Shown here: positions 2,893-64,000 of the stretch, piece by piece
Layout of the letters: every line of letters starts with the position of its first letter
How positions within the stretch are numbered: the stretch's first letter is position 1
Origin: Lachnospiraceae bacterium
GTDB taxonomy: Bacteria; Bacillota; Clostridia; Lachnospirales; Lachnospiraceae
Direction of reading: 5' to 3'
NCBI GenBank assembly: GCA_017938285.1
Contig: JAGBBW010000061.1
Location: 7,627 to 71,626, forward strand
Length of the DNA: 64,000 nt
Made by a program: the position numbers and the translations under genes
The notes under the pieces: model-generated
The model's database searches: none
Seen by the model: the letters and a program-made list of their open reading frames with translations, nothing else
Told to the model about the DNA's origin: nothing

Positions 2893-2967
2893 TCAGAAAA
2901 ATCAAATCGTAAAGAACCGGATGGTTATGAAATGCCGGATATGCAGGGAAAGGGGGAAACTTAATTT

Positions 2968-17209: not shown

Positions 17210-17455
17210 ATGGGTAACTACCTCGACTTCGGTCCTAAAATCGCACACAGGGGCAACACAGGCTCTCGTAGGGGAATGGTTCCTGTGCTCTATGATGTAG
17301 ACCATACTATTGATTTGCAATTAGGCGGAGCAGATGATATAGTGAATAGGAATCCATTAAATATGAGTGTTAATAGAAGTTTAGGTGTACAAATTAAAAA
17401 TGCTATTAAAGATTATCCAGATGGAACGGTATTTGGACAATCTACGATACAGTAA
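17210..17455 (+). CDS. Orphan HNH/EndoVII-type nuclease toxin C-terminal module, 81 aa
   Basis: GMVPV (same 15-nt gggaatggttcctgt as cassette 1) is followed by DVDHTIDLQLGGADDIVNRNPLNMSVNRS, which fits the D-H...GG...N...N HNH layout. Promoter-like TTGACA-18-TACAAT at 17027-17056. Confidence 0.5.
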   Translation: MGNYLDFGPKIAHRGNTGSRRGMVPVLYDVDHTIDLQLGGADDIVNRNPLNMSVNRSLGVQIKNAIKDYPDGTVFGQSTIQ

Positions 17456-17465
17456 GGAGAATGAT

Positions 17466-18017: not shown

Positions 18018-18180
18018 AGACACCAACTACCTAAGGAAGCACTGATTAATTCATTGCTTCCTTAGAAGTTTCCTGCGGATCGCACGAATTTGCTGGGCGG
18101 TGCAGGAGAAAGTGAGAGGATATATTTATCAAATAAAAGTGTAAAGTACGTTGATGTTTTTTTTAAGAAAGGACGGAAAT

Positions 18181-40727: not shown

Positions 40728-41158
40728 ATAATGAAGAATTCAGACCGAAAATTGTAGCGTTCTGCTGTAACTGGTGCAGCTATGCAGGCGCTGACTTAGC
40801 AGGCAGCAGCCGTCTGGCTTACCCTGCTGATGTAAAGATTATCCGTGTACCTTGTTCCTGCCGTGTTAATCCAATGTTCATTTTAAGAGCATTTGAGAAG
40901 GGCGCAGATGGTGTTATCCTTTGTGGATGTCATCCGGGCGACTGTCACTACAGCACAGGTAACTACTATGCAAGAAGACGTATGACACTTCTGTTCTCCA
41001 TGCTGGACTATATCGGTGTGGAAAATGGCCGTACCCGCGTAGAATGGGTATCTGCTGCGGAAGGTGTTAAGTTCTCTCAGACTATGAACGAATTTGTAGA
41101 AAAGATTCATTCTCTTGGTAAGAATGTAAGATTGGGGGATTTAAGATGCAGGAATTAA
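40718..41158 (+). CDS. mvhD: MvhD/FlxD-like iron-sulfur protein
   Basis: 146 aa. IVAFCCNWCSYAGADLAG ... VPCSCRV ... GCHPGDCHY is the typical MvhD pattern. Confidence 0.8.
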   Translation: MSLNNEEFRPKIVAFCCNWCSYAGADLAGSSRLAYPADVKIIRVPCSCRVNPMFILRAFEKGADGVILCGCHPGDCHYSTGNYYARRRMTLLFSMLDYIGVENGRTRVEWVSAAEGVKFSQTMNEFVEKIHSLGKNVRLGDLRCRN

Positions 41159-42117
41159 TCAGTCGTGCAAAAGAGCTTCTGGCAGACGGTACCGTAGCCC
41201 GTGTTCTTGGCTGGAGAGCAGGCGATCTTCCATACAATCCGGAACCGGCTTATTTTACTACCGCAGAAGAACTTGAAAATTTTGTATATAACGGTTTTTG
41301 TGGCGCAAACCTTAGCAAGTACATGATTGAGGCTTCCAAGCTGGAAGGCAAGACCATGGTCTGCTTAAAGCCATGTGATACCTACAGCTTCAACCAGCTC
41401 ATCAAGGAGCACCGTGTAGACCGTGAAAAGGCATACATCGTTGGTGTTGGCTGTAAGGGTAAGTTAGACATTGAAAAGGCAAAGAAGCTTGGAATCAAGG
41501 GTATCGAGAGTGTATCCGGTGCAGAAATGACCAACGCTGCCGACACACTGACCTTCCAGACGATTTATGGCGAAAAGTCCTGTTCTTACGCTGAGGCAAT
41601 GTTAGAGCGTTGTCATGTATGTAAGGGCAAGGAGCATATGGTATATGATGAGCTGATTGGCGAGTCTAAGGATACCAAGGATGCAGAGCGTTTTGCTGAG
41701 GTAGAAAAAATCGAAGCAATGTCTCCTGCAGAAAAGTTTGCTTTCTTCCAGAAGGAACTTAGTAAGTGTATCCGTTGTAATGCCTGCCGTAACGTATGTC
41801 CGGCCTGCAGCTGCCGCAAGTGTGTTTTCGACAGCACCAAGTTCGACAGTGCGCAGAAGGCAAATGTGGATTCCTTCGAAGAGAAGATGTTCCATGTCAT
41901 CCGTGCGTTCCATGTAGCAGGACGTTGTACTGACTGTGGTGAGTGCAGCAGAGTATGTCCACAGGGCATTCCACTTCACTTATTCAACCGTAAGTACATT
42001 AAGGATATCAATGAGTTATATGGTGAATACCAGGCTGGTGCAGATACAGAATCCAGAGGACCATTAACAAACTTTACATTTGACGATTGCGAACCAAGCA
42101 TCGTAACACAGCGGTAG
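41146..42117 (+). CDS. 4Fe-4S dicluster protein, FlxC-like position
   Basis: 323 aa. CIRCNACRNVCPACSC and CTDCGECSRVCP. Sits between the mvhD-like and flxB-like genes. Confidence 0.55.
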   Translation: MQELISRAKELLADGTVARVLGWRAGDLPYNPEPAYFTTAEELENFVYNGFCGANLSKYMIEASKLEGKTMVCLKPCDTYSFNQLIKEHRVDREKAYIVGVGCKGKLDIEKAKKLGIKGIESVSGAEMTNAADTLTFQTIYGEKSCSYAEAMLERCHVCKGKEHMVYDELIGESKDTKDAERFAEVEKIEAMSPAEKFAFFQKELSKCIRCNACRNVCPACSCRKCVFDSTKFDSAQKANVDSFEEKMFHVIRAFHVAGRCTDCGECSRVCPQGIPLHLFNRKYIKDINELYGEYQAGADTESRGPLTNFTFDDCEPSIVTQR

Positions 42118-42134
42118 AAAGGGGATAATGTTGT

Positions 42135-43166
42135 ATGTATAAGATAGCAAAAGAAAATCTTCCGGCATTATTCCAGTTGATTGCCGGAGAAAGAGAACTG
42201 TATGTTCCAGTAAATAATAATGGCCAGGTGAATTTCGCAGCATGGACCGAAGGCGCAGTGGTTGACTTAGACACATTAAAGAGTGTAAAGTCTCCAAAGG
42301 ATGCGTTCTTCCCACAGAGTGAAAACCTGTATACCTGTTATAAGGATGGCAAGAAAATTACTATCCAGCCGGAAGAATTACAGAACCAGAACTTCGTAGT
42401 ATTTGGTATGAAGGCCTGTGATGTCAAGGGTGTTGAGGTTCTTGACAAAGTATTTTTATCCGAGCCTGTAGACAGCTTCTACGCAGCAAGACGTGCCCAT
42501 GGTACTATCGTTGCCCTGGCTTGTCATGAGCCGGAAGAAAGCTGCTTCTGTAAGGTATTCGGTATTGACTGTGCGGAACCTGTGGCAGACGTTGCTGCCT
42601 GGATGGTAGAAGGGGAACTGTACTGGAAGGCTCTTACCGAAAAGGGTGAAGCTTTAACAAAGGCAGCCGCTTCCTTACTGACAGAAACAGACGAGGCAAA
42701 GGTAGAGGCAGAAAAGGCTGCTATCCGCGCCATCGTGGAAAAGCTTCCATATTCTGACCTTTCCTTAGAGGGCTGGAATGGCGATGCTTTAACAGAAAAG
42801 TTCAACTCCCCTGTATGGGAAGATTTATATAAGCCATGTCAGGCATGCGGAACCTGTACCTTTGTATGTCCGACCTGCCAGTGCTACGACATTAAGGACT
42901 ATGATACAGGACACGGCGTACAGCGTTACCGCTGCTGGGATTCCTGTATGTACTCCGATTTCACTATGATGGCCCACGGTAACAACCGTACCAGCCAGTT
43001 ACAGAGATTCCGTCAGAGATTCATGCACAAGTTAGTATACTTCCCTGCAAACAATGATGGTATGTACTCCTGTGTAGGCTGTGGCCGCTGCGTGGAGAAG
43101 TGTCCATCATCCTTAAATATCGTAAAGGTAATCAAGGCTTTTGAAAAACAGGGAGGTGACCAGTAA
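42135..43166 (+). CDS. Fe-S oxidoreductase, AsrA / sulfhydrogenase-beta / FlxB-like
   Basis: 343 aa. CQACGTCTFVCPTCQC and CVGCGRCVEKCP, with AsrA-like overall layout. Confidence 0.6.
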   Translation: MYKIAKENLPALFQLIAGERELYVPVNNNGQVNFAAWTEGAVVDLDTLKSVKSPKDAFFPQSENLYTCYKDGKKITIQPEELQNQNFVVFGMKACDVKGVEVLDKVFLSEPVDSFYAARRAHGTIVALACHEPEESCFCKVFGIDCAEPVADVAAWMVEGELYWKALTEKGEALTKAAASLLTETDEAKVEAEKAAIRAIVEKLPYSDLSLEGWNGDALTEKFNSPVWEDLYKPCQACGTCTFVCPTCQCYDIKDYDTGHGVQRYRCWDSCMYSDFTMMAHGNNRTSQLQRFRQRFMHKLVYFPANNDGMYSCVGCGRCVEKCPSSLNIVKVIKAFEKQGGDQ

Positions 43167-44023
43167 TGTGCGATTGTACATGTCATGAAAATTACACACT
43201 GGATACCTTAATTCCAAAGGTTGGTGTGATTACAGATATCCGCCAGGAAACTCCGGACGTTAAGACCTTCCGTGTCAATGCTCCAGAGGGCGGTAAGTTA
43301 TTTGAACATATGCCTGGCCAGTGTGCCATGGTTTGTGCTCCGGGTGTCAGCGAAGGTATGTTCTCCATTACCTCTTCTCCGACCAACAAGGAGTATCAGG
43401 AATTCAGCATTAAGAAGTGTGGTATGCTCACCGAGTATCTGCACAGCTTAGAGGTTGGTTCTGAAATTACCGTGCGTGGACCTTACGGTAACCACTTCCC
43501 GGTAGAAACTGAATTAAAGGGCAAGAACCTGTTATTCATTGCCGGTGGTATCGGTCTGGCTCCACTTCGTTCCGTTATCAACTATGTCATTGATAACCGT
43601 GACAACTATGGAACAGTAGATATCCTGTACGGTTCCCGTTCCGCAGATGACTTAGTTCAGTTAAAGGAAATCCAGGAAGTATGGATGAAGACTCCGGGTA
43701 TCAATGTATACCTGACCATTGACCGTCCACAGGAAGGCTGGGATGGCAATGTAGGTTTCGTTCCTTCCTACTTAAAGGAACTGAACTTCGCAGCAGAAGG
43801 CAAAGTTGCCCTGGTTTGCGGACCGCCTATCATGATTAAGTTCGTTCTGGCTGGACTTAAGGAAATGGGCTTTAAGGATGAGCAGGTTTACACAACACTG
43901 GAACTTCGTATGAAGTGTGGCGTTGGTAAGTGCGGACGTTGTAACATTGGTTCCAAGTACGTTTGTAAGGATGGCCCGGTATTCCGTTTTGACGAAATCG
44001 ATGAGCTTCCAAACGAATATTAG
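43166..44023 (+). CDS. FAD/NAD(P)-binding 2Fe-2S oxidoreductase, AsrB / HydG / FlxA-like
   Basis: 285 aa. FNR-like fold motifs (MFSITSSP, LLFIAGGIGLAPL) and a C-terminal CGVGKCGRCNIG cluster. Confidence 0.72.
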   Translation: MCDCTCHENYTLDTLIPKVGVITDIRQETPDVKTFRVNAPEGGKLFEHMPGQCAMVCAPGVSEGMFSITSSPTNKEYQEFSIKKCGMLTEYLHSLEVGSEITVRGPYGNHFPVETELKGKNLLFIAGGIGLAPLRSVINYVIDNRDNYGTVDILYGSRSADDLVQLKEIQEVWMKTPGINVYLTIDRPQEGWDGNVGFVPSYLKELNFAAEGKVALVCGPPIMIKFVLAGLKEMGFKDEQVYTTLELRMKCGVGKCGRCNIGSKYVCKDGPVFRFDEIDELPNEY

Positions 44024-44051
44024 TTTGTTGTTTTTCACTTTCACAAGAAAA

Positions 44052-44203
44052 GCTTTTTGAATTACAATATCCATGTCCGCCTGACTCTCCGGACAGGTGT
44101 TCGTCCAGGCTGGAACAAACAAAGAAAAGATTTTGTTTGTCCATCCTGTCCGGACACCTATCCGTTGAGATGTCGGACATTTGGAAATTGCAATTCAAAA
44201 AGC
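44052..44203. repeat. Long imperfect nested palindrome (about 150 nt hairpin) in the flxA-frdB intergenic region
   Basis: Four arm pairs occur in mirrored order: 44052-44072/44183-44203, 44073-44079/44174-44180, 44089-44097/44145-44153 and 44112-44123/44132-44142. A third copy of the tttttgaatt motif lies at 44318-44333. Confidence 0.6.
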
Positions 44204-44383
44204 TGCATAGGTTGTGAAAAGGCGAAGAAAAAGTTTGAGTGTGGTTTGAAAAACAGCAAAAACTTGGGCAGGCTGCAGAAAGAAAACACTAGGTAAACAA
44301 CTTGAGATATGAATAAAGTTTTTGAATTGTGGAAGCTATGTTGCAGCAATGCAATTCGAATTATTTCAAAAGGAGAAAAAATC

Positions 44384-45058
44384 ATGGCAGATATGATTAA
44401 CATCTACTTATACGGTAAGAAGTATGAAGTACCGGCAAGCTTAACCATCATGGAAGCATTTGAATATGCCGGCTATCAGTTAGTACGTGGCTGTGGCTGC
44501 AGAAACGGTTTCTGCGGTGCCTGTGCTACCATCTACAGAATTAAGGGCAAGAATGAATTAGTTGGCTGTCTTGCCTGCTCTACAAAGGTTGAAAATGATA
44601 TGTGCGTAGCAACCTTACCATTCTTCCCATTAGAGAAGAAGGTTTATGATATTACAGAGATTAAGCCTACGGCACAGATTATGATGCAGCTGTATCCTGA
44701 AATTTATGCCTGCGTTGGCTGTAATGCATGTACCAAGGCATGTACCCAGGACCTTGATGTTATGCAGTATATCGCTTACGCACAGAGAGGCGAGTTCGAA
44801 AAGTGTGCGGAACTTTCTTTTGACTGTGTAATGTGTGGCGTATGTTCCTCCCGTTGTCCGGCTGGCATTTCCCACCCACAGGTTGCACTGCTTGCAAGAA
44901 GACTGACCGGTAAGTACATCAGACCGGAAGCAGAGCATCTGACCAAGAGAGTAGAAGAGATTGAAAACGGTGACTGCCGTGCATTAATCGAAGCTATCAT
45001 GCAGAAGCCTCTGGAAGAACTGAAGGAAATGTACAATACCAGAGAAATTGAGAAGTAG
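44384..45058 (+). CDS. Fumarate reductase/succinate dehydrogenase iron-sulfur subunit-like protein
   Basis: 224 aa from MADMINIYLYG, after AAAGGAGAA. 2Fe-2S motif CGCRNGFCGACA, plus CVGCNACTKAC and CVMCGVCSSRCP. Confidence 0.7.
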   Translation: MADMINIYLYGKKYEVPASLTIMEAFEYAGYQLVRGCGCRNGFCGACATIYRIKGKNELVGCLACSTKVENDMCVATLPFFPLEKKVYDITEIKPTAQIMMQLYPEIYACVGCNACTKACTQDLDVMQYIAYAQRGEFEKCAELSFDCVMCGVCSSRCPAGISHPQVALLARRLTGKYIRPEAEHLTKRVEEIENGDCRALIEAIMQKPLEELKEMYNTREIEK

Positions 45059-45071
45059 GAGGATACCAATT

Positions 45072-46694
45072 ATGAGTTTACCATATACCGCTGAGATGAT
45101 GGAATCCGTAAAAAAGGTAGAGGCTGGCAGAGCTGCCCGTATTGGTTTTGAGCCAAAGCGTATGACAGCAGAAGAAAAGACTGCCCTGCTGGAAGCATTC
45201 CATCCGGACTACAATCTCGACAGTTTTGAAGAAATTAAGGTTGGCCCGAATAAGGGTCAGAAGGCTCCGAAGGAATTAGTGGAAATCCTTCAGGGTGAAA
45301 GCAGAATCAAGGGAATGAACCTTGATTTAAGCAAGGTGGATTATGATGTAGACGTTCTCGTTATCGGTGGCGGCGGTGCAGGTTCTTCCGCTGCAATTGA
45401 GGCAAACGAGGCAGGCGCAAACGTTATGATCGTTACCAAGCTTCGTATTGGTGATGCCAATACCATGATGGCAGAAGGTGGTATCCAGGCAGCAGATAAG
45501 GAAAATGACTCCCCTGCACAGCACTACCTTGACGTTATGGGCGGCGGTCATTACGCAAATGTTCCTGAATTAGTAGAAAAGCTGGTTTGTGATGGTCCTC
45601 TGGCAATCAACTGGCTTGACAAGTTAGGCGTTTTATTCGACAAGGATGAAAACGGTAACATGATTACTACCCACGGTGGTGGTACTTCCCGTAAGAGAAT
45701 GCACGCTGCAGCAGACTACTCCGGTGCAGAAATCATGAGAGTACTTCGTGATGAAGTTATCAACAGAGGTATTCCGGTTGTTGACTATACAGCAGCTATC
45801 GAAATCATCAAGGATACCGAAGGTAAGGCAGCAGGTGCTGTTCTTATGAACATGGAAACAGGAGAAATCCTGATTGCAAGAGCTAAGACCGTAGTTATTG
45901 CTACCGGCGGTGCAGGCCGTATGCATTACCAGGGATTCCCAACTTCCAACCATTACGGTGCTACCGCAGATGGTCTGGTTCTGGCTTACCGTGCAGGTGC
46001 AGCATTACTTTACCAGGATACGTTACAGTATCACCCAACCGGTGTTGCATTCCCAGCGCAGATTTACGGTGCACTGGTAACAGAAAAGGTTCGTTCCATG
46101 GGCGCTATGTTCGTAAACCGTGAAGGTGAAGTATTCATGCATCCACTGGAAACAAGAGACGTAGCCGCTTCCGGTATCATCCGTGAGTGTAAGGAAAGAG
46201 GCATGGGTGTCCAGACTCCACAGGCAGAAGGTATCTGGCTGGATACTCCAATGATTGATATGATTCACGGTGAAGGCACACTGGAAAAGAGACTTCCAGG
46301 TATGCTCCGTATGTATTTAAGATGTGGTATCGATATGAGAAAGGTGCCGATCGTAATTTATCCGACACTGCACTACCAGAACGGCGGTATCAAGATCTCC
46401 GCAAATGGTATGTCTGATATCGAAAACCTCTATGTAGCTGGTGAAGCTGTCGGAGGAATCCACGGAAGAAACAGACTGATGGGTAACTCCTTATTAGACA
46501 TCATTGTATTTGGCCGTAATGCAGGTAAGCAGGCAGGTGCCAAGTGCAAGGAAGTTGAGTTAAAGGAATTAACACTGTCCCATGTGGATGATTACTCTAA
46601 GATGCTCGCTGACGCTGGTATTGAACCAAAGGTAGTTTCTCCTAAGTTATTACCAGACTACAGAAAAGACGGCGTAACAAGATTAGAGAAGTAA
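45072..46694 (+). CDS. Fumarate reductase/succinate dehydrogenase/L-aspartate oxidase-family flavoprotein; probably a soluble fumarate reductase
   Basis: 540 aa. VLVIGGGGAGSSAA, QYHPTG, HYQNGGI, GEAVGGIHGRNRLMGNSLLD. Asn130 aligns with the FrdA His that binds FAD covalently. There is a roughly 90 aa N-terminal extension. Confidence 0.72.
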   Translation: MSLPYTAEMMESVKKVEAGRAARIGFEPKRMTAEEKTALLEAFHPDYNLDSFEEIKVGPNKGQKAPKELVEILQGESRIKGMNLDLSKVDYDVDVLVIGGGGAGSSAAIEANEAGANVMIVTKLRIGDANTMMAEGGIQAADKENDSPAQHYLDVMGGGHYANVPELVEKLVCDGPLAINWLDKLGVLFDKDENGNMITTHGGGTSRKRMHAAADYSGAEIMRVLRDEVINRGIPVVDYTAAIEIIKDTEGKAAGAVLMNMETGEILIARAKTVVIATGGAGRMHYQGFPTSNHYGATADGLVLAYRAGAALLYQDTLQYHPTGVAFPAQIYGALVTEKVRSMGAMFVNREGEVFMHPLETRDVAASGIIRECKERGMGVQTPQAEGIWLDTPMIDMIHGEGTLEKRLPGMLRMYLRCGIDMRKVPIVIYPTLHYQNGGIKISANGMSDIENLYVAGEAVGGIHGRNRLMGNSLLDIIVFGRNAGKQAGAKCKEVELKELTLSHVDDYSKMLADAGIEPKVVSPKLLPDYRKDGVTRLEK

Positions 46695-53988: not shown

Positions 53989-54429
53989 ATGGAAAATGCA
54001 GTTTTAAATCAGATTAAATATTTGTTTGAGGAAAAAGGAATCCGTTATTACAGCGATGACAGTGAGAGAATCGGAGCAAAGTTTTCTGATTTTGTTTTAA
54101 TGTTTCATGTAACAGAAGAAGCCCTTTCTTTTAAAATGTATTTGGAAGAAAAGGCTTCTGCACAGTGCAGACCGGATGTGCTGGAATATTTGAACTACGC
54201 AAACCAGATCATGAAGGAAGGACATTTCATACTGGATAACGAAGGGGACATATACTTTATTATTTACACGGAGCGTTCGACAGACAGTTACATATCGGAT
54301 GGCCGTATCATGGACATACTGACAAAAGGTTACTCTGCGAATGAGATGTTTCATGAGGAACTGAAAACGGTAATTGCCGGAACAGCGACTCCGCTGGATG
54401 CGATTCGGAATACGATTAGTAACAGGTAA
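53989..54429 (+). CDS. Small cytoplasmic protein, possibly YbjN/T3SS-chaperone-like fold
   Basis: 146 aa, RBS CAGGAGGAA. The alpha/beta pattern and length resemble the YbjN family, but this is a weak judgement from memory. Confidence 0.35.
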   Translation: MENAVLNQIKYLFEEKGIRYYSDDSERIGAKFSDFVLMFHVTEEALSFKMYLEEKASAQCRPDVLEYLNYANQIMKEGHFILDNEGDIYFIIYTERSTDSYISDGRIMDILTKGYSANEMFHEELKTVIAGTATPLDAIRNTISNR

Positions 54430-54533: not shown

Positions 54534-54587
54534 AGATGGTGAAATCGTTACGAATTATCGGTAATTTGCAAAAGGAGAAGAGGAAAA

Positions 54588-57500
54588 ATGCTGGATAGTA
54601 CGGTAAAGAATATGCTGTTTTTGTATGTAGACCACCTGGTTTGTCTTAGTATGGAAAACGGGGATAGAATAGAGGGAGAACTGCTGGCAGTGGAGGAGGA
54701 TGCGGTTGCCCTTTTGAAGGAAGGGGAAGTAAAACGGTATTCTTTTGCTGAGCTGACAGACGTGCGTTATGTGGGAAATCTGACAGATTACCGGACATTT
54801 GCTGGTACTGGAGAAATTGACAATACGTTCGTTTTTGATATATCTGCATGCAGTGATGAAACTATCATTGAGAAAATTAAATATCAGGAATATAACTGTA
54901 CCATGAGCTGCCATCTTGTCTTTGATATGCAGATTAAAGCTGCGGATATAAGGGTGGAGCGTTTTTACCATGTCAGGAATATGGATATCCTTGGTAAGTC
55001 AAACTATCTGTATACCTTTACAAACGGAACCTGTCTGTCTGGTATGCTGATGGAGTCTGGTGAAACCTATTCCCTTGTCTGTAATAATCGTACTATCATG
55101 GAATTTGACTGGAAAGAAGTGGAAGACATTACACGCCAGCCGGTAATTAATGATGAGATTACCGTTTATATGAAAACAGGAGAAGTATACAGTGGTATAG
55201 TTTGTGCCGCACAGCAGGAATTCTGCAATATTATGCTGGGCAGAACGCAGCTGCAGAAGATTCGTTATGCAGAAATGAAACGGCTCTTTTTTCATGGAGA
55301 GGTTACGGAATGCATGCCGGGAAAGCATGGTGTAGTAGACAATATCTATCGGTGTAAATATCCGCATTATCTTCAGAGTATGGAGCAGGCAAAGCTGTTT
55401 CAGTATGGTGCAAAGGTAATGTATATGGTAGGCATTAATCAGCGGGCGCAGGTGGCCAAGGAAGTAGAAGTTCTGATTTCTGAAACAGAGAAAGCGGAAG
55501 CAGAACATAAAATCGGAATTATTCTGACGATTGGTCCGATTACACAAACCGGAAGCTCCCAGAAGTGGTTTGGATACATCGGAAATAAATATGTCATGCA
55601 GTCCTGTGGAGAACCGGTGAGGGGGGATCTTGTATTTTATCCTGATGCGCAGCTTTTTACAAGATCACTGAATCTGCAGGAAAATATTTATGTGGTGAGG
55701 TATACCCCGACCGGACAGCTGAATGAACGGGGGCAGCAGCCGGTGACCATACTGGAGATGGTAGAAGCTATTCCCAAAAAATATATTGGTATGGTTGAAA
55801 TTGTGGATGGTGTCATTGTCAAAACACCGTTGTATCAGGCAGTGATTGGGGGCAGTCTCACGGGTTCTGTGTATAAAAATAAAGAAGTGGAAATTATCTG
55901 CAAGGATGGAAGTACCTGCACCGGAATCGTAGCAGAGCATAATGAGAAAGGCTTTACGCTGCATAATGGAGAACTAATCGATTATACCAGAATTGAAAAT
56001 GTCAGAATTTTTGACAGGGTTTCTTCGTATGGTGATAATGGGGTTGGTTTTACTGTTTCAGGCTTACGTTTTCATGTGAATGACAGCGCACTGGATATGG
56101 AGTCGGTGGAGATGTTAGCTGCCAACGTGAGAATATCTTATGTACTGGCGAATAATCTGTCAGGCAATGACCGGAAAGTTTTATGGAAATTTTTCAATAT
56201 TGTAGAGATGAAAGTATGGAAGGATTCTGTTCAGAAACCTGTGGAGCAGCCGGAAGGGGATTCTGAGCAGAAGATAAAGGAACTGCCGGAGAAATCTCCG
56301 GTTCAGGAAATTGCAGTGCTGTCGGAAAAGGATAATGGAATGTTATTAAAACAGCGGTTCGGCGAAATCCCAGGTGGTATAGAGGGAGGATACGGTATTC
56401 TGCATAAGGATTTTCGTAATCCGAAGGTTGTTTATGTCAACAGCACTTACCGTAATCCAAGGCTGACCACGGAAAAATGTGGAAAAGGACTGCCTTTTAA
56501 TGCCGCAGAAGTAAAGATACATGCCGAGGAACTGTTTGTACCGGGAGATTTTTACATTGTAAGGTATAAGGAGGTTTCCGGGGAAGCATATCGTTATGAA
56601 ATAGAATTTGTTGGTAAAATTAGAAAGTTGCCTTCCCTGATGGCGATTGATATTGAAGACAGTAACAGACTGTTTATCAGAATACAGGAGGGAGTTTCTG
56701 CAATTCCACAGAAGCCGGTAGTATATCAGAACAGCGTGCCGGAAGTAACAGATGGAGAAACGGTATTTTATGAATATGAGCGGATTTTAGGTAATGCAGA
56801 AGCAAATTATTATGGTCTTACCATGGAAGCAGTGATTCATGCGGCAGAAAAGGCGGGACTCTCCATAACAGACCAGGATATTGCTGTATGGCGGTTTGGT
56901 GTTTTGGAAAACAAAGATTATGCCATGACCATAGGCATATTGAACAGGGGAGTAGAGTTTGAACTTTCCCTTGTGGAACAGAAAGCCTTTAATATTCTAA
57001 AGACAGCAAAGCGTAAAATGATGGTGGCGTTTACCTGCAAAAACGGAAAAATTGCGAAGGTGAAGCTGGTACCGGACGAAGTATTGAAACTGCTGTGCTG
57101 GCAGAAAGGAACCGTAACTTCCTGTGGTGCTAATGACAAACACATCATAATTGACAAAAAAATTGTTCATTACTTATCTGTGCGGAGTGATGGACTGGTT
57201 AATAATTATGCAAAAAACGGACGGCTGGAAAAAGAAGAGGTTTATGTAAAGGTAGTACATTATGCGGAGTGGGGAGAAAAGAAACGACTGGTTTCTGCTG
57301 CCGCAGAAATACATCTGCAGGTTGAAATGGCAGATATTTTATATAATACAACACAGAACCGGTATATGGCATATAGAAACCAGACCCAGTTTGTTGCCCT
57401 GGAGGATGTGAGTTCGGAGAACCTTGCAGCATTAAAAAATACTTCGGTAGGTGTGCGTTTTGTACCAGAACCGGGAAGTAACCAGCTGAAAGCGTATCTT

Positions 57501-59636
57501 ATGGACAAGATTACAGAAAAAATTTCTCCGGAAGAAAATTTTCAGAGAAAAGTGGAAGCATTAAGGGACGATTTTAAGAAAGCAGCGGGTTCGCTGGATA
57601 TTTACCGCAGTACGGCAGAATGTCTTGCAGGCCGTACAGAATATCTCTTAAAGGAACTGGGCGGCGACAGGGAAGAACTGTTCCATGTACTGGTGGAATT
57701 GAAGGAACTCAGTGGTAATCTGGCGGCAAAGCAGGGAAGTGATTATACGGTGTTCCAGCTGGTACTGGAAAAAGCAGAGGGAGACATTTCAGAAATGCAG
57801 AGAGCATTAAAATGGGAAACCGAAGTAGAACAGATTCTGGCAGAATTACTGGACAGACTGGAAGCAATGGTCGGAAAGGATCTGAATGATTTATATAAAA
57901 AGTCTGCTCCTAAAATAAGCTGCCGCCCCAATGTAACGGAAATTGGGAAGTCAGAGCAGTATCTGTATATTCTGCTTTCCAATGAAGGAAATAAACAGCC
58001 GGCGGCTAAGGTGAGAGTCATTTTGGAGGCTACAGAACTGCCGGATGGTATGCTGCAGAGGGAGGTAGAACTGACAGCCGCCTTAGAAGCAGGTGCAGAG
58101 GCAATCCAGGTACCATTCCGTCTTGCGGTTTCTGATTTTAATGGAGATGGTTTCCTTGTAAACTGGACGATTAAGTACCAGTGTATTACCGGATATCAGG
58201 ATGGAAGGAATGAGCTTGGGGATCTATCCACTGAAGGAACATTCGAACTTCTGATTGCAAATGGAGAGCAGAACAAAAACAGAGAGGCAAAGAATCCGTA
58301 TGCAGAACCGGCAAAAGGAATGCCGCTGAAGACCAGGGAAATGTTTTTTGGACGGGTGAGACAACTGGTAAATTTCTGGAACCATGTACTGGACAAAGAA
58401 ACAGGAAAGCTGATACCGGGAAAAATGACGATTATTTATGGTCTGAGGCGTTCCGGCAAAAGCAGTCTGGTGCACCAGATTATGAATACGCTGAATACGA
58501 ATGAAATGGCAGCAGATGTACGGCAGAATGAAGATCTGGAGATAGCCTGGAAGGAAACAGAAAAACCATATGTTATCTATTTCCGGAATATGGGAGGAGA
58601 TTTTACCTATTATCAGGAACCGCTCTGGTTTGAGCAGTCATTGTATTTTGCAATCATGGATCAGTTAGGCAGGCAGATACCAGGGGAACTGAAGCAGGAA
58701 CTGCTGGCAGAGTGCGGCTGCATCCGGGAATCAGAAAAGAGCAGTGCGGCCAGGATGTCTTTGGATAAGATTATTGAGAATCCGGTCACAATGAAATTAC
58801 AGTTTAAGAAGTTTATTGAGGGATTCCGGAGACTGGATCAGGACAGACATAAGCTGGTGCTGATTATGGATGAATTTACAACACTTTGTGTCAAGGCAGC
58901 AAATTATACAGCAGAAGGGTATAAGAACTGGGAGAATGTTCCAACGTTTATAAATTCCTTTGCGGACATGGGATTTATTCAGATTGTTATCGGACATTCT
59001 TATATGATGACATCGTTGGAGCGGCTTGGAATTCTGAATCAGACCGTAGAAAATATCGACCAGTTAAAGCTGGAGGTATCGGAACTAGATTCTGTAGAAG
59101 CAAAAAAATTAATTATTGAGCCGATGGAAAGTGCCTTTGGCTGCAAACCATTTGATTCGACCATGGGTGTGAAAGCGGTGGAAAATTTACTGGATTTATC
59201 AGGAAGGCTGCCATTGATGATTATGCGCCTGTGTAACAGACTGTTTGAATATTTTAGAAGGTCAGACAGTGCCAGAATCGTTACTGATGATGTCCAGAAT
59301 ATGCTGCTGCACTGGTTTAAGGACCAGGAGAGTGTCACAAAGTTCAATACCAGCATTTTTGATGTGCTGATTGAGGAGGACAGCGTTGGCGGATGCCTGG
59401 AGGATCGTGATACATGGAAGTTCCTGGAGCATGTAGCCAAGCTTTCCATGAAGAGTGCAAATCGTGACTGTGATGCGGAAGAAGCGTTTAAAACGTGTGA
59501 ATCCCTGGCAAAAGAACGATGTGAAACGATAGCCAAGGAGCTGGATAAGCGGGGCGTTATTTCCCGGGAAGATGGAAGAATTAAAATTTTTGTTGGCCTG
59601 TTTGGAAAATACAATCAGTATAAAAAAGGATGGTAA
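54588..59636 (+). CDS. Giant 1682-aa protein: about 950 aa of repeated small beta-barrel-like modules, a helical/coiled-coil segment, a beta-sandwich-like segment, a PF01637-like (GxRRxGKS) ATPase and a C-terminal winged helix
   Basis: RBS AAAGGAGAAGAGG. Walker A IIYGLRRSGKSSL (nt 58440-58466), preceded by FFGRVRQL. Walker B LVLIMDEF (about nt 58855-58878). The C-terminal IAKELDKRGVISREDGRIKIF looks like a winged helix. The N-terminal modules are described in the findings. Confidence 0.85.
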   Translation: MLDSTVKNMLFLYVDHLVCLSMENGDRIEGELLAVEEDAVALLKEGEVKRYSFAELTDVRYVGNLTDYRTFAGTGEIDNTFVFDISACSDETIIEKIKYQEYNCTMSCHLVFDMQIKAADIRVERFYHVRNMDILGKSNYLYTFTNGTCLSGMLMESGETYSLVCNNRTIMEFDWKEVEDITRQPVINDEITVYMKTGEVYSGIVCAAQQEFCNIMLGRTQLQKIRYAEMKRLFFHGEVTECMPGKHGVVDNIYRCKYPHYLQSMEQAKLFQYGAKVMYMVGINQRAQVAKEVEVLISETEKAEAEHKIGIILTIGPITQTGSSQKWFGYIGNKYVMQSCGEPVRGDLVFYPDAQLFTRSLNLQENIYVVRYTPTGQLNERGQQPVTILEMVEAIPKKYIGMVEIVDGVIVKTPLYQAVIGGSLTGSVYKNKEVEIICKDGSTCTGIVAEHNEKGFTLHNGELIDYTRIENVRIFDRVSSYGDNGVGFTVSGLRFHVNDSALDMESVEMLAANVRISYVLANNLSGNDRKVLWKFFNIVEMKVWKDSVQKPVEQPEGDSEQKIKELPEKSPVQEIAVLSEKDNGMLLKQRFGEIPGGIEGGYGILHKDFRNPKVVYVNSTYRNPRLTTEKCGKGLPFNAAEVKIHAEELFVPGDFYIVRYKEVSGEAYRYEIEFVGKIRKLPSLMAIDIEDSNRLFIRIQEGVSAIPQKPVVYQNSVPEVTDGETVFYEYERILGNAEANYYGLTMEAVIHAAEKAGLSITDQDIAVWRFGVLENKDYAMTIGILNRGVEFELSLVEQKAFNILKTAKRKMMVAFTCKNGKIAKVKLVPDEVLKLLCWQKGTVTSCGANDKHIIIDKKIVHYLSVRSDGLVNNYAKNGRLEKEEVYVKVVHYAEWGEKKRLVSAAAEIHLQVEMADILYNTTQNRYMAYRNQTQFVALEDVSSENLAALKNTSVGVRFVPEPGSNQLKAYLMDKITEKISPEENFQRKVEALRDDFKKAAGSLDIYRSTAECLAGRTEYLLKELGGDREELFHVLVELKELSGNLAAKQGSDYTVFQLVLEKAEGDISEMQRALKWETEVEQILAELLDRLEAMVGKDLNDLYKKSAPKISCRPNVTEIGKSEQYLYILLSNEGNKQPAAKVRVILEATELPDGMLQREVELTAALEAGAEAIQVPFRLAVSDFNGDGFLVNWTIKYQCITGYQDGRNELGDLSTEGTFELLIANGEQNKNREAKNPYAEPAKGMPLKTREMFFGRVRQLVNFWNHVLDKETGKLIPGKMTIIYGLRRSGKSSLVHQIMNTLNTNEMAADVRQNEDLEIAWKETEKPYVIYFRNMGGDFTYYQEPLWFEQSLYFAIMDQLGRQIPGELKQELLAECGCIRESEKSSAARMSLDKIIENPVTMKLQFKKFIEGFRRLDQDRHKLVLIMDEFTTLCVKAANYTAEGYKNWENVPTFINSFADMGFIQIVIGHSYMMTSLERLGILNQTVENIDQLKLEVSELDSVEAKKLIIEPMESAFGCKPFDSTMGVKAVENLLDLSGRLPLMIMRLCNRLFEYFRRSDSARIVTDDVQNMLLHWFKDQESVTKFNTSIFDVLIEEDSVGGCLEDRDTWKFLEHVAKLSMKSANRDCDAEEAFKTCESLAKERCETIAKELDKRGVISREDGRIKIFVGLFGKYNQYKKGW

Positions 59637-59640
59637 TAGA

Positions 59641-61824
59641 ATGGAGAGTATTACAACAGAAAGAACGAGCGGGTTTATTGGCAGGGTAAATCTGTTTGAT
59701 GACATAAGAAAAGGTGTTTTTGTAACTCAGTTGGGAACGGGCACCTGTTATTCCCTTATGGGATTAAATGGAATTGGAAAAACACGCCTTGTGGAGGAAT
59801 GGGCAGAGAACTGGAGGAAGGATACCAGTAAGGACCCGAATATCTATTATTTCAGTACCCGTTTATCCGACGCAGACAGTGAGTGGAGCTACTGGGTAAA
59901 GCTGATTCAGGATGTCAGAAGGGTAATTCGTGAGGAGCAGTTAAGAAAAGCACCAAATCCGGAAGAAAACCTGGTGAATGAGATTTTAGACATATATAAA
60001 GAGATAGACACGAATCCTGCATTGTATTCGGAAATAGCAGGACTGAGGAATATGCAGAGAGACCGGTATTTCCGAAATTTTTTCGAGGTTTTTGAAGAAC
60101 TGGGAATTCATCTGATTATTACCATAGATGAGTTTGATGCAGCAGCAACCCTGTTTCCAAAGGAAAAGGGAGATGGCAGTTTCTTTCGAAAACTTTACAG
60201 TCTGTCTGGCAAAGCAGGAAAAAAGAATCTGACCATTTTGATTATTTCCAGACGGCGTATCGGAACCCTGGCACATGGGATGGAGCATGGTTCCGATATT
60301 GAAGATGCGTATCCTCCGTATGCCCTGAAAGGATTTACTTACCAGGAGCTGATCGAATATTTTCAGGGACTGGATAATTACAGTGCCATGACGGATGAGG
60401 CATTTAATGCAGTAATTGGATATTGTGGCACACATCCGGGGCTTCTGACTACCATGGGAGCTGCCATTGATTCCGTACCGTCCGGAAGTCCAATTGATGT
60501 GGATACCCTGTTTCTGCAGCGGAGACTGCCACTGGAAAAAACATTTGAGCGGATGCAGAAGCTGATGAAGCTGGAATACGTGGATGCAGAGAAGGAAAGA
60601 AACTGTATTGCTCCGTTCCGGCAGGCATTTCTTGGTCCGGTGTATGATTCGAGACTGGCATCCAGACTGAAAATGCTGCAGGATTATGGTTTTATAACCC
60701 ACAGGGGAGAGTACGAGGAAAATTTATATGAACTGGCAGGCTGGAAAAAAGAAGGAATGGAAACGGATGTATTCCGTTCTTATGCGGAGCAGCATGCGTA
60801 TGAACCGGTATCTCCTTACTTTGTGCTCTATATGAAATATAATGTTTTGCCGGAAGAAATGGACGACCTGGACAGAAGGAAGAGTTTTACGGAAGTGAAT
60901 ATCCGGAAAATGCTTGTAGACGTATATAAAAGTAAGTATGGGCCGGCGTGGAGAGCAGAGATGGAACAGGAAAAGGAGGGAAGCGATAAGGTTGCCAGGA
61001 TATTTAGTGGTAAGCAAACCTATCTGAAGAATATGGACAAGACTGCGGCAGCCAATCGTTCGGATATGGAGTATACCATTCTGAATGTGCTGGCCTTCCA
61101 TGAATATGCGCAGATTATTATAAAATACTGGGATCAGGCAAAGGTATATTTCCAGTCCTACGAACCGGAAGAGCTGGAAAAAGACTTTTTCTTCCTGTCT
61201 ATAACAAGAAATACGATAGAACATGAAAATGCAGAAATGTTGAATAACGAATATTGTGAAGTTGCTGCAAAGATTTGTGAAAGAATCAATAAGGGAATTG
61301 AAGAGGGACGGGGAGGTATTGTAAGAAATAAACCAGCCCGTCCGGCAGATGCTCCGGGGTTCAGTGGCTGGGGAGAACTGACGGCTGGAACTCCATTTCA
61401 AAACAGGCAGGGAAACAACTCACAGAATACAGTTTCTGGAAACAGCGCCGGACAGAATCAGGAGAGTCAGGCAGCACAGGGGAATACGCAGACGGAGGGA
61501 GCGGTTACCCAGGTACCGGTCAGCTGGGGCTATAACTATGAAGAAGTATTGGGACGTATGAGTGGGTCCTCCCAGGCGTTTGAGATTACATATAATTTTG
61601 AAAGAACATGCAGTTTTTCATTAACGGATGGTACAACAGTACGTTATGCAAAAGGAAATGTTGTGCTGGATGGAAGAAAGTATGTGGTTGCAATGGAAAT
61701 GGGAAGACACCGCTTTGAGAAAGACACGCCGGAAATGGCAGAAGTGTATGCTGTCTTTGACTATACCGAGGAGAAAAATGGAAGACCGGTTCCTCGTAAA
61801 GCATTTATGGGCAGATTAAAATAA
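59641..61824 (+). CDS. STAND-type NTPase fused to a HEPN (Swt1-like) domain, a Q/N/G/S-rich linker and a small C-terminal beta domain
   Basis: 727 aa from MESITTERTSGFIGRV. Walker A GLNGIGKTRL (nt 59761-59790). Walker B LIITIDEFD. HEPN motif RNTIEH at nt 61207-61224. The start lies 4 nt after the stop of the giant gene. Confidence 0.8.
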   Translation: MESITTERTSGFIGRVNLFDDIRKGVFVTQLGTGTCYSLMGLNGIGKTRLVEEWAENWRKDTSKDPNIYYFSTRLSDADSEWSYWVKLIQDVRRVIREEQLRKAPNPEENLVNEILDIYKEIDTNPALYSEIAGLRNMQRDRYFRNFFEVFEELGIHLIITIDEFDAAATLFPKEKGDGSFFRKLYSLSGKAGKKNLTILIISRRRIGTLAHGMEHGSDIEDAYPPYALKGFTYQELIEYFQGLDNYSAMTDEAFNAVIGYCGTHPGLLTTMGAAIDSVPSGSPIDVDTLFLQRRLPLEKTFERMQKLMKLEYVDAEKERNCIAPFRQAFLGPVYDSRLASRLKMLQDYGFITHRGEYEENLYELAGWKKEGMETDVFRSYAEQHAYEPVSPYFVLYMKYNVLPEEMDDLDRRKSFTEVNIRKMLVDVYKSKYGPAWRAEMEQEKEGSDKVARIFSGKQTYLKNMDKTAAANRSDMEYTILNVLAFHEYAQIIIKYWDQAKVYFQSYEPEELEKDFFFLSITRNTIEHENAEMLNNEYCEVAAKICERINKGIEEGRGGIVRNKPARPADAPGFSGWGELTAGTPFQNRQGNNSQNTVSGNSAGQNQESQAAQGNTQTEGAVTQVPVSWGYNYEEVLGRMSGSSQAFEITYNFERTCSFSLTDGTTVRYAKGNVVLDGRKYVVAMEMGRHRFEKDTPEMAEVYAVFDYTEEKNGRPVPRKAFMGRLK

Positions 61825-61897: not shown

Positions 61898-62881
61898 ATG
61901 GAAGAACAGAGTTTTATGAGTGGCATGAAAAATAGTGCGGAAGTGAATGCTGGTCTGGAGGAAACTATTTTTGATTCACCGGAAGTGAGAGGAATCCGCC
62001 AGATAGAAGAAGAACTTTACCAGCCGGGAGAAATTCCGGACAGCTCTGTGGTGCAGCAGATTTATGAAGTGAAAAAGCGGATGGAGCTGTTCGATAAAAA
62101 AAAGGCGTTGGAAAACTGGAAAACAGGAGAGGTTCCGGAAAAGAAAAAAACCATTCCGAATTTTGTCATTATGGGAGGTCCGGGAAGTGGAAAGACCACA
62201 CTGGCAAAAAGGCTGGCTGCTTATCTGGGCAGTGACTGCGGGAAGCGGGCAAATGTGATAGGAAGTGTGCAGAGACAGTGGATTCTGATAAAATCTGCCT
62301 CCGATTTAAAGGGCACCCATGTAGGACAGACGGCGGAGCGGGTGTACAATATGCTGGTAAATGCAGCAAAGAACAAGCAGATTATTTTTATTGATGAAGC
62401 ATATCACCTTCAAAATGATGAATTTGGACGGGAGGCGGTGGATATGCTGCTTCCCCTGTTGTCCGGAGACAGGGATGTGATTGAAAAGGCAGCAGACGGG
62501 CAGGTCGTTTCCTATTCCTTTTCAGAACATGGGACTGCCGTACCACCAATCTGGTTTGGCGGTTATGAGCATGAAATGAGGAAAATGCTCTCGGAAAATC
62601 CAGGGTTATACCGGAGAATGATAAAATTGTCCCTGTCCACACCCGGAGTAAAGGAACTGTTTCGGAACTTATGTATGCTTTCGAAGGACAACCAGGACTG
62701 TCTCACCGTCTTTCTGGATAATGAAAAAGAAATCAAGGATTATTTTGCCTGGGGGATGCGGCCGGAATATGTGGATTATTTTTCTTCCTATGCCGGTGTG
62801 AGAAGCATGTATGAGACAGCGGAGGTGTATTTGTCCAGGTCCATGGAAAAATCCCAGGCAGGAAGCTGCTGCACCGGATGA
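61898..62881 (+). CDS. AAA+ ATPase of the SpoVK/CbbX/EccA type
   Basis: 327 aa. FVIMGGPGSGKTTLAKRLA, IIFIDEAYHL, FGREAVDMLLPLL, and GGYEHEMRKMLSENPGLYRRM matches the family layout (A/GGY...NPGLxSRF). Confidence 0.8.
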   Translation: MEEQSFMSGMKNSAEVNAGLEETIFDSPEVRGIRQIEEELYQPGEIPDSSVVQQIYEVKKRMELFDKKKALENWKTGEVPEKKKTIPNFVIMGGPGSGKTTLAKRLAAYLGSDCGKRANVIGSVQRQWILIKSASDLKGTHVGQTAERVYNMLVNAAKNKQIIFIDEAYHLQNDEFGREAVDMLLPLLSGDRDVIEKAADGQVVSYSFSEHGTAVPPIWFGGYEHEMRKMLSENPGLYRRMIKLSLSTPGVKELFRNLCMLSKDNQDCLTVFLDNEKEIKDYFAWGMRPEYVDYFSSYAGVRSMYETAEVYLSRSMEKSQAGSCCTG

Positions 62882-64000
62882 TAGAAGAGAAAAAGGCAGA
62901 GATAAAGAAACAGTACAAAGCAGTGCTGACAGATATTAAAAGTGCAGAGTTTGAAATAGAAACTGACATTACAGCAACCCTGGAAGACAGGATAGGAAAC
63001 AGGGAAACTGTGGATACGCTGCGTTCCATTATAGAATGTCTGTACCGGAACGCCACTAGGCAGGAAATTGCAGATGCCCCGAAAGGAGTACTGTTTACAG
63101 GTCCGTCCGGAACCGGAAAAACCTCTCTGGCAAGGGCGGTAGCCGGAGAAATTCAATTACGGTTTGAACAGAATATAGAGCAGAATCTGAAAGTGGCATT
63201 TATTTCCACAGTAGCTTCGGAACTAAGAGAAAGCGGAAAAATGAAGCGTCTGTTTGAAGAGGCAGAGGAGTACGATGTCTGTATTATTTTCATTGACGAA
63301 CTGGATGCTATTGGAAGAAAACGGGATATGCCAGGTGCCAGACCAGAGCTGTTATATCAGTTGTTAAAAGAAATGGATGAAGTTGAGGCAAGGAAAAATG
63401 TGTTTGTAATCGGTGCTACCAACGATCCCCGGATACTGGATCCGGCACTCTTACGTCCGGGACGGTTGGAACGTTTTCTGGAGCTTTCCCTGCCAGACCT
63501 GGAAGAGAGAATACTGCTGCTGCGAAAATATATCATGGAGCTTCCTTTTTTGCAGGAGGCATTGCAGGAGGAAAAAAACAGGGAAGAGATGGAACGGTAT
63601 CTGACGGGACATGCGCAGCTGCTCATGGGATATTCCCAGGCGGATATGAAGGGGCTGGTGAACCGGGCCGCCATGGAATGTATGGGAAAAATGTCAGATA
63701 TTCACAGGTATGATAATAGTATCGTGACATTTTACCGTCATATTTTCGGGATGCTGATCGTGAAAAATTTTCAGCTCAAGACTCCGGTGAATTACCAGAA
63801 GGTGGCATTTTATGCGGAACGTTATGAGGAGGTATCAGCGTTGGCGGTACATCAACTGGGACATTATGTTGTAAATGAGTCTTTTTCGGTCCGAAAGGAT
63901 ACGGAAAAAGTTTCGATTTTGTTCCGGGATGATTCCTTTGCCTATATGGACTGGTGGCGGGAATATACTCCGACGGACCGGGAAAAGCTGCTGCGCCAGA
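62878..64000 (+). CDS. Soluble FtsH-like AAA+ protein with a degenerate M41 zinc motif (HQLGH); 3' end lies outside the window
   Basis: ATGA overlap with the previous gene. GVLFTGPSGTGKTSLARAVAGE, IIFIDELDAIG, GATNDPRILDPALLRPGRLER, then AVHQLGHYVV at nt 63850-63864 where FtsH has HEAGH. No N-terminal TM segments. Not in the ORF track because no stop codon occurs before the window end. Confidence 0.8.
   Translation, partial: MIEEKKAEIKKQYKAVLTDIKSAEFEIETDITATLEDRIGNRETVDTLRSIIECLYRNATRQEIADAPKGVLFTGPSGTGKTSLARAVAGEIQLRFEQNIEQNLKVAFISTVASELRESGKMKRLFEEAEEYDVCIIFIDELDAIGRKRDMPGARPELLYQLLKEMDEVEARKNVFVIGATNDPRILDPALLRPGRLERFLELSLPDLEERILLLRKYIMELPFLQEALQEEKNREEMERYLTGHAQLLMGYSQADMKGLVNRAAMECMGKMSDIHRYDNSIVTFYRHIFGMLIVKNFQLKTPVNYQKVAFYAERYEEVSALAVHQLGHYVVNESFSVRKDTEKVSILFRDDSFAYMDWWREYTPTDREKLLRQ

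Follow-up and report, generated by a model that had tools for sequence, protein, structure and literature searches.

We identified, in a 64,000-nt stretch of DNA from a Lachnospiraceae bacterium (GenBank assembly GCA_017938285.1, contig JAGBBW010000061.1; hereafter the window), a gene for a giant protein in which the first 975 residues are modeled as a string of some twelve small β-barrels, with two kinds recurring. This gene, here called gene A, is the open reading frame at 54588..59636 on the plus strand, as are its modules, gene B and the genes directly flanking the two. It has an AGGAGA ribosome-binding site directly 5′ of its ATG and encodes 1,682 residues, identical to NCBI MBO5352366.1, 'MAG: ATP-binding protein [Lachnospiraceae bacterium]' (MAG, metagenome-assembled genome). 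The barrel array is followed by a helical region, a β-sandwich, an ATPase and a putative C-terminal helical or winged-helix-like tail. Immediately downstream lies gene B, which encodes a second ATPase with a HEPN-like domain, and the A-B cassette looks like an undescribed two-gene defence-type system. The domain anatomy rests on predicted structure and profile evidence; the identity of the ligand, the manner of activation, RNase activity and a role in defence are inferred. GC skew is strongly positive across the whole gene A region, and opposite-strand open reading frames inside the gene (e.g. 54555..54971 and 54999..55547) were left out of the gene count.

The array was modeled with AlphaFold2 in two parts, residues 1-545 from a 34-sequence family alignment and residues 546-1245 from a 39-sequence alignment whose placement was checked. 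We used an alignment of full-length proteins; a fragment-based alignment, which put helical and sandwich fragments onto the OB block, was discarded. Mean predicted local distance difference test (pLDDT) scores were 90.7 and 84.2, respectively. Across residues 1-975, the models contain four Sm-like barrels, eight barrels resembling OB folds or cold-shock domains (CSDs), and three β-hairpin linkers. The Sm-like order of a short helix and five strands is seen in modules M1, M3, M4 and M8, all with pLDDT >90, and the OB/CSD-like order of β1-β3, a helix or loop, and β4-β5 in M2, M5, M6, M9, M10, M12, M13 and M14. M13 and M14 are assigned as OB-like on their modeled strand and helix order alone. The first-pass annotation of this DNA, made by eye, had proposed at least nine barrel modules of two repeated types; the types and the repetition stand, and the number was an undercount. 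The six segments that it quoted each fall within a module confirmed here independently, residues 20-62, 191-235 and 433-475 in M1, M4 and M8 for the Sm-like type, and residues 326-356, 485-520 and 600-663 in M6, M9 and M10 for the cold-shock-like type.

The first nine modules make up what we call the N-block (residues 1-545). M1 (54627..54773, residues 14-62) is an Sm-like barrel preceded by an N-terminal helix at residues 4-13, with modeled strands at 17-22, 27-35, 39-44, 47-52 and 56-62. It shares a long strand with M2 (54771..54971, residues 62-128), an OB/CSD-like barrel with β1-β3, a helix at 91-98, and β4-β5. M3 (54978..55139, residues 131-184) and M4 (55146..55295, residues 187-236) are both Sm-like, M3 being modeled as a short helix plus five strands, and M4 runs into the OB/CSD-like M5 (55293..55475, residues 236-296; β1-β3, helix 265-270, β4-β5). 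M6 (55503..55778, residues 306-397, containing 'KWFGYIG') is a CSD-like barrel with insertions, its modeled strands spanning 308-396. It is followed by M7 (55779..55862, residues 398-425), a hairpin-and-helix linker with strands at 400-406 and 409-414 and a helix at 415-421. The block closes with the Sm-like M8 (55875..56018, residues 430-477) and the cold-shock domain M9 (56016..56222, residues 477-545, 'GVGFT...RFHV').

Residues 546-595 (56223..56372; net charge -4), where pLDDT falls below 50 at model residues 1-45, are by this model a disordered acidic linker. Beyond it, M10 (56379..56627, residues 598-680, 'GGYGILHKDF') is modeled with the strands of a CSD-like barrel. M11 (56637..56852, residues 684-755) consists of two β-hairpins (684-691/694-701 and 726-734/737-743) and a helix (746-755), modeled in part with low confidence. 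M12 (56877..57071, residues 764-828, '[YW]RFG ... N786'; β1-β3, helix, β4-β5) is OB/CSD-like, and is followed by the OB-like M13 and M14 (57093..57503, residues 836-910 and 911-972), for which pLDDT exceeds 90. M12-M14 constitute the second conserved block of the gene A family, block profile positions 708-927 being present in more than 40 members.

In a comparison with known structures, Foldseek matched the first model to PDB entries for Spt5 KOW arrays, Unr (CSD456 and CSD12), the SETDB1 triple Tudor, Spindlin, LEF-3 and Hfq. The Hfq matches had a probability of 1.0, with root-mean-square deviations of 1.7-4.3 Å over 55-63 columns and template modeling (TM) scores, normalized to the target, of 0.58-0.72. 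Against viral models, LEF-3 and S1-like proteins were found. For the modules of the array, the structure-based check yielded barrels and not other folds.

Are these modules related to one another? Self-BLASTP of residues 1-1240 returned the identity match only, even at E 1000. Because such a search is useless for repeats this divergent, we adopted profile methods. A self-comparison of a four-sequence profile already pairs residues 187-254 with 14-81 (P 0.005) and 179-284 with 422-523 (P 0.009). We then compared module pairs profile-to-profile with hhalign on the 34- to 39-sequence family alignments. Sm-type pairs among M1, M3, M4 and M8 scored 80-98% probability, led by M1-M8 (98.4%, E 4e-15), M4-M8 (98.0%), M1-M4 (97.6%), M1-M3 (95%) and M3-M8 (93%). 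Among the OB-type modules, M2-M5 reached 96.6%, M5-M9 96.1%, M2-M9 94.4% and M6-M10 95.2%, with M12 tied to M2 at 83% and to M9 at 63%. M13 and M14 showed no significant hhalign similarity to other modules, scoring within the control range. As controls, we ran 132 comparisons with reversed targets and 132 with column-shuffled targets; the best of these 264 reached 11% probability (E 0.0027), which puts the repeats well clear of chance. The reversed and shuffled controls also exclude an artefact of β-rich composition as its source. By these profile comparisons, the two module types are true internal repeats.

In three places, M1-M2, M4-M5 and M8-M9, one long strand passes from an Sm-like barrel into the OB barrel that follows. 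From this shared strand we conclude that the duplicated unit is an Sm-then-OB two-domain unit, which is present in three copies.

We next asked which known families the modules resemble. In a Pfam scan of 34 N-block sequences, LSM matched 18, the RimP C-terminal SH3 domain 11, DUF6897 and SM-ATX 6 each, and CSD 3. The LSM (PF01423) matches were counted at E<=0.01, with a best value of 7e-7; the best CSD (PF00313) match, E 2.4e-3, missed the curated threshold. For the window protein, LSM scores 24.7 bits on residues 1-545 against a cut-off of 23.4, a value for the whole fragment of which no single stretch passes alone, and 19.8 bits, below that cut-off, on the full protein. Searched against all PDB sequences, the N-block profile gave 45 matches at E<=10, of which about 40 are LSm, Sm, Hfq, EDC3-LSm or cold-shock proteins. 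The LSm-class matches fall on M8, M4 and M1 and the cold-shock matches on M9 and M5, and an independent full-length alignment gives the same pattern.

Taken module by module, M1 is covered by LSm7 at profile positions 7-61. M4, which also carries the Pfam LSM match at residues 187-221, is covered by the archaeal Lsm 6tfl at positions 185-230. M8 has the best matches at positions 404-463, namely the EDC3 LSm domain (the top PDB sequence match, E 6e-4), LSm2, LSm8 and Hfq, together with a weak match to NCBIfam MM0924 at 429-472. On the cold-shock side, the CSD protein 2kcm matches M5 at positions 234-292, and M5 pairs with CspA at 53% by hhalign. More than 20 Csp chains fall on M9 (positions 461-516), and CspA, B, C, D and E are all represented among the cold-shock matches. 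The M9 profile pairs with Escherichia coli CspA over the whole domain at 93.2% (E 2.9e-7; E. coli comparison sequence entered by hand) and with CspB at 85%. On this profile evidence, M9 is a recognisable cold-shock domain, a five-stranded OB barrel homologous to CspA and CspB. The two fold types first suggested by eye, Sm/SH3/KOW-like and CSD/OB-like, were thus borne out by sequence profiles and by structure comparison alike, and the repeats that were then suspected are recovered by hhalign with controls far lower.

Conserved motifs further distinguish the modules. Across the family, M9 carries N-G-T-G-[YFW]-I-D ... [FWY]-F-H-[IV], with the glycine in 31 of 34 sequences, the aromatic residue in 22, the phenylalanine in 28 and the histidine in 27; in the window protein this has become GVGFT ... 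RFHV, partly decayed relative to the consensus. The M6 motifs G-[YFW]-I-G and G-x-V-x-F recur in 27-33 of the 34 members aligned, M2 has G-x-I-D-x-x-[YF]-x-F, and M5 has I-D-x-x-[YF]-x-x-K. In M12, the motif [YWF]-R-F-G includes R769 and G771 (each 37/39), and N786 is invariant (39/39). The Sm-like modules bear an Sm2-like [IVL]-R-[YI]-x-G, not the canonical I-R-G; its arginine is kept in 28-30 and its glycine in 29-33 of 34 sequences in M4 and M8, and D58 of M1 is invariant (34/34). These OB and Sm-like motifs resemble the RNP1/RNP2 motifs (K/R-G-F/Y-G-F-I and V-F-V-H-F) and the Sm2 motif, respectively. The window protein departs from the family at several such positions, with F234 for an arginine, D476 for a glycine and R494 for an aromatic residue.

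Downstream of the array, six modeled helices occupy residues 981-1105 (57528..57902), and a β-sandwich with an Ig-like fold occupies residues 1110-1224 (57915..58259; pLDDT >90). A helical stretch had been anticipated at about residues 975-1090, with a sandwich before the ATPase, and the models contain both. The sandwich has Foldseek matches to FimC/Caf1M chaperones, the C3 MG domain and cohesin (probability 0.97-1.0). Taken together, the helical region and sandwich (57528-58259, residues 981-1224) have STAT2, STAT3 and STAT5 as their best PDB matches in Foldseek (E 3e-5, TM scores 0.13-0.20). In STAT proteins, an Ig-like DNA-binding domain comes after a coiled-coil bundle, and the resemblance may reflect just a common helix-bundle-then-sandwich layout. 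The P-loop ATPase and putative C-terminal helical tail follow at 58335..59633, with a Walker A motif (GLRRSGKS) at residue 1285 and a Walker B motif (LIMDEF). These motifs are kept across the family (consensus GQKKCGKTS and MDEFT). A Pfam scan of the full protein gives sub-threshold ATPase matches only, at residues 1275-1443, in addition to the weak LSM match at 187-221; AAA_14 is among the models matching this domain below cut-off. In place of the C-terminal repeat sensor of the STAND type, A has a sensor-like region that is N-terminal and is modeled as β-barrels.

Gene B (59641..61824, 727 residues) begins four bases after the gene A stop codon, at the start also used by NCBI and supported by homologues. 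It encodes an AAA_16/ATPase_2/NACHT-like ATPase, a putative HEPN-like domain (R523-N524-x3-H528) and a variable C-terminus. In the B family, Pfam ATPase_2 matches 8 of 8 proteins (best E 5.9e-9), AAA_16 7 and NACHT 5, and the Walker residues G46, K47, D163 and E164 are invariant in an eight-sequence alignment. So are R523, N524 and H528 in 8/8 diverse partner proteins, forming a motif of the Rx4-6H type. RNases of the HEPN class are known to function as dimers, their Rx4-6H site being composite (PMC3710099). The suggestion of a STAND-like ATPase beside a HEPN RNase gene, also made in the first-pass annotation, held only at the level of weak profile matches, accompanied by the invariant R-N-x3-H. 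Homology between the ATPases of A and B emerges at the profile level only (hhalign 97.5%, E 6.5e-12, 248 columns), BLASTP of the A ATPase against B being not significant. The last ~170 residues of B (~555-727; 61300-61824) comprise a low-complexity Gln/Asn/Ser-rich linker and then a small domain. In homologues of B, which range from 538 to 744 residues, the segment is either hypervariable or lacking, and it could therefore be a second specificity element.

A word-indexed search with residues 1-970 found three full-length relatives at 37% identity, and an exhaustive profile search found 89 clusters among 1.84 billion representatives, nearly all of them giant proteins of 1,400-2,600 residues; at HMMER level the family did not connect to any small Sm or cold-shock protein. 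A further homologue search from a family alignment returned nothing, an outcome that probably reflects its word prefilter and does not count as evidence of absence. All members come from metagenomes or metagenome-assembled genomes, none has a functional name, and they diverge fast (22-42% identity). Members have four regions in common, namely the N-block, a second block (residues ~745-975), the ATPase and, before it, the helices with the sandwich. Apart from the ATPase, conservation is widest in the N-block and the OB triplet. Most relatives (P0005-P0081) have ~300-500 extra residues between N-block and OB triplet and ~180-260 between OB triplet and helical region (in P0006, for example, residues 485-889 and 1110-1407); the window protein and its three closest homologues represent a shortened form of the family architecture. 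The N-block is missing altogether from a few relatives (P0048, P0055, P0058 and P0068). The whole protein had no tblastn match in plasmid and phage collections, and patterns from close homologues found no relative among 185,579 GTDB species representatives.

The giant gene is directly followed by the B gene in 12 of 12 loci, whether these were reached from relatives of A or of B, and the flanking genes differ in every one. Such a rare and patchy family, with unrelated flanks at each locus, is typical of accessory conflict systems, for which a paired sensor/effector NTPase layout is likewise typical (PMC7159879).

The reading towards which we lean, at slightly less than even confidence, is that A and B form a conserved 'regulated NTPase plus HEPN effector' cassette in which A is the sensor and B the effector, most likely directed against invaders in an abortive-infection-like manner. 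The 975-residue array, which may have arisen by repeated duplication of the Sm-then-OB unit, would offer many small ligand-binding faces, like beads on a string. The conserved, exposed RNP1/RNP2-type aromatic and histidine motifs of the OB modules suggest single-stranded nucleic acid, probably RNA, as the most likely ligand, and sensing of nucleic acid by the array is plausible on these motifs. A single-stranded ligand is favored because of the CSD/OB motifs and the RNase-type effector. Ligand binding would be signaled through the helical region and the Ig-like sandwich, freeing the C-terminal P-loop ATPase for ATP-dependent assembly. A would then co-assemble with the paralogous ATPase of B, bringing its HEPN domains together into active RNase sites. 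A more specific proposal, possible and rather doubtful, casts A as a receptor in the cytoplasm whose chained Sm-like and CSD-like barrels, built from a triplicated, undescribed Sm-OB unit, would themselves recognise single-stranded RNA or DNA. Its STAND-like ATPase switch would license the HEPN RNase, and A would be a nucleic-acid-sensing counterpart of the NLR-like Avs receptors, which sense proteins.

Several observations weigh against the favored reading. Residues 1-975 have a net charge of -19 and an isoelectric point of 5.6, and acidity is a family-wide trait of the Sm-like modules (mean -1.9 to -5.1), which is unusual for polyanion binders. M5, M6, M9, M10 and M12 are neutral to mildly basic, and CspA itself is acidic; the acidity of the array weakens the case for nucleic-acid binding without excluding it. 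The EDC3 LSm domain, our top LSm match, binds peptides or protein, and to our knowledge the bacterial STAND sensors characterised to date recognise proteins. The ATPase of A scores below cut-off against every relevant Pfam model (ATPase_2 24.9 bits, cut-off 33.2; AAA_16 19.1, 32.6; nSTAND3 12.3, 27.2), HEPN_Swt1 matches only four of eight B proteins and weakly (best E 2.1e-3), and HEPN_Apea matches one; a PDB profile search with B gave no HEPN match. In PADLOC-DB v2, A has a match of P-loop length only (PDC-S01, E 4e-4, 30 residues) and B none, and NCBIfam gives no useful match for either. Around the cassette in the window no defence island is evident, the neighbors being prolyl-tRNA synthetase (ProRS), a chemoreceptor and AAA ATPases.

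These points bear differently on the alternatives. If, as Tudor, SH3, chromo and EDC3-LSm domains and Avs-type STAND sensors do, the array of the same ATPase-HEPN system instead bound a protein or peptide, for example a phage protein with a structural role or one in replication, then its acidity and that of its Sm-like modules across the family, the peptide-binding EDC3 LSm as best PDB sequence match, and the SETDB1 triple-Tudor and Spindlin readers found by Foldseek would all be accounted for. The acidic Sm-like modules and the precedent of bacterial STAND sensors speak for a protein ligand, the Avs families being reported to sense proteins (PMC13581612). We nevertheless consider it rather unlikely, as the RNP1/RNP2 aromatic and histidine residues are kept in M9, with related motifs in M2, M5, M6 and M12, arrays of several OB folds or CSDs (Unr, S1, LEF-3) typically bind single strands, and the effector is an RNase-type domain.

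The cassette might, on the other hand, have no part in defence and be an accessory machine of RNA metabolism or quality control, acting in stress response or regulation, with the array as an RNA chaperone or substrate platform for an ATP-driven HEPN RNase working on host RNA. Barrels of the Sm, CSD, RimP-like and KOW-like kinds typify RNA chaperones as well as ribosome or transcription factors, the setting of the cassette in the window is a housekeeping one beside ProRS, and PADLOC finds nothing. A machine of this kind is improbable given the extremely sparse and patchy distribution (89 clusters, none in the GTDB species representatives by close-homologue patterns), the fast divergence, the changing flanks at every locus and the NTPase layout typical of conflict systems (PMC7159879). 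A third alternative is an array that has no specific ligand and serves as a spacer, an oligomerisation scaffold or a set of partly decayed repeats, with sensing done by the sandwich, the helical region or the C-terminus of B. The decayed positions F234, D476 and R494, the lack of recognisable shared motifs in M13 and M14, and the hypervariable end of B speak for it; against them stand the wide conservation of the N-block and OB triplet, surface-type residues that are invariant or nearly so (D58, G30, N786 and R769), and highly confident AlphaFold2 models, and we regard this alternative as quite improbable.

The surroundings of the cassette contain further genes. Just 5′ of gene A, a small YbjN-like protein is encoded at 53989-54429 (PF10722, 27.2 bits, cut-off 22); none of the other loci examined has such a gene ahead of the cassette. 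On the other side, a SpoVK/CbbX/EccA-like AAA gene lies next to the cassette at 61898-62881 (TIGR02881, E 3e-16, far below cut-off), and a classic AAA protein (GPSGTGKT ... DELD ... PGRLER) extends from ~62900 to 64000 and past the window end. We rejected these two AAA ATPase genes as members of the system, as they are missing beside the cassette in most other loci. In one related locus (L007), the A-B pair is followed by a gene with weak Card1-endonuclease-like similarity and by several unknown genes (14505-19399); in another (L008), a gene faintly resembling NusG, and so KOW-containing, directly precedes the giant gene (2574-3137). Farther upstream in the window, at 38739-46694, is a run of iron-sulfur and flavoprotein genes of the heterodisulfide-reductase/hydrogenase-like kind, with a fumarate-reductase-like flavoprotein, which belong to ordinary anaerobe metabolism and are unrelated to the cassette.

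Among described systems, the nearest analogue in layout is CoCoNuT, with its CSD, coiled-coil, Ig-like and AAA+ arrangement and HEPN association. CoCoNuTs are type IV restriction-like systems in which CnuB/McrB carries N-terminal CSD-like OB folds and a coiled coil, CnuC has an Ig-like sandwich, and HEPN nucleases are present, with RNA as the predicted target (PMC11090510). The gene A cassette likewise combines CSD-like OB folds, a helical or coiled-coil region and an Ig-like sandwich beside an AAA+-class NTPase with a putative HEPN-type RNase domain. SpoVK-type AAA genes are sometimes found near CoCoNuTs, where they are listed as add-ons of type III-A operons (PMC11090510), and one adjoins the cassette in the window. 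In contrast to CoCoNuT, however, the NTPase appears to be of the ATPase_2/AAA_16 (STAND-like) kind rather than an McrB GTPase, there is no McrC/DUF2357 partner, gene A has twelve barrels including four Sm-like ones where CoCoNuT has one or two CSDs, and the putative HEPN domain is carried by the other of two paralogous ATPases. The cassette showed no detected sequence homology to CoCoNuT components. With STAND/NLR-like systems such as Avs (PMC7159879, PMC13581612), the cassette has in common an AAA_16/ATPase_2/NACHT-type NTPase, a large sensor region, a putative nuclease effector, a patchy accessory distribution and, as we infer, a logic of ligand-triggered oligomerisation. It differs in that the sensor of A is N-terminal and built of small β-barrels, as opposed to C-terminal repeats of the TPR, WD40 or LRR type, in that two paralogous ATPases divide the sensor and effector parts between them, much as sensor/helper pairs do, and in that Pfam STAND models stay below their cut-offs on A.

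The array itself can be compared with tandem small β-barrels on one chain, as in Unr/CSDE1, Spt5, ribosomal protein S1 and LEF-3, which are its best structural matches. Those proteins have a single barrel type and no ATPase or nuclease partner, whereas Sm-like and OB-like barrels alternate in A and share a connecting strand. Similarly, Sm/LSm/Hfq proteins and the EDC3 LSm domain have the same fold order of an N-terminal helix and five bent strands, a likeness reflected in the Pfam LSM, PDB and Foldseek matches, although the modules of A are acidic and have the Sm2-like [IVL]-R-[YI]-x-G in place of I-R-G. As the Sm-like modules are covalently linked, with OB folds between them, they are unlikely to form the classical homomeric ring of six or seven members. 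An SH3-like barrel adjoining an OB fold is also the two-domain RNA-contacting unit of EF-P/eIF5A and of ribosomal protein L2; no sequence relation to these was detected, and in A the two-domain unit is triplicated within a giant ATPase. Overall, the cassette is best read as a novel member of the conflict systems that pair a regulated NTPase with HEPN (PMC7159879, PMC3710099), as a variant within that class.

Whatever its function, this analysis defines domain boundaries for a family of ~90 clusters that has been labelled only 'ATP-binding protein'. If our proposal is correct, the cassette would be a previously uncatalogued two-gene immune-type system of gut Firmicutes, with a sensor made entirely of RNA-chaperone-type small barrels, and would point to a possible nucleic-acid-sensing mode for bacterial STAND-like receptors, most of which are known to read proteins. 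It would furthermore provide a natural case of Sm-like domains acting as covalently linked monomers that alternate with OB folds. Its two paralogous ATPases would make a compact pair of sensor and effector, comparable to the sensor/helper NLR pairs of plants and open to biochemical dissection.

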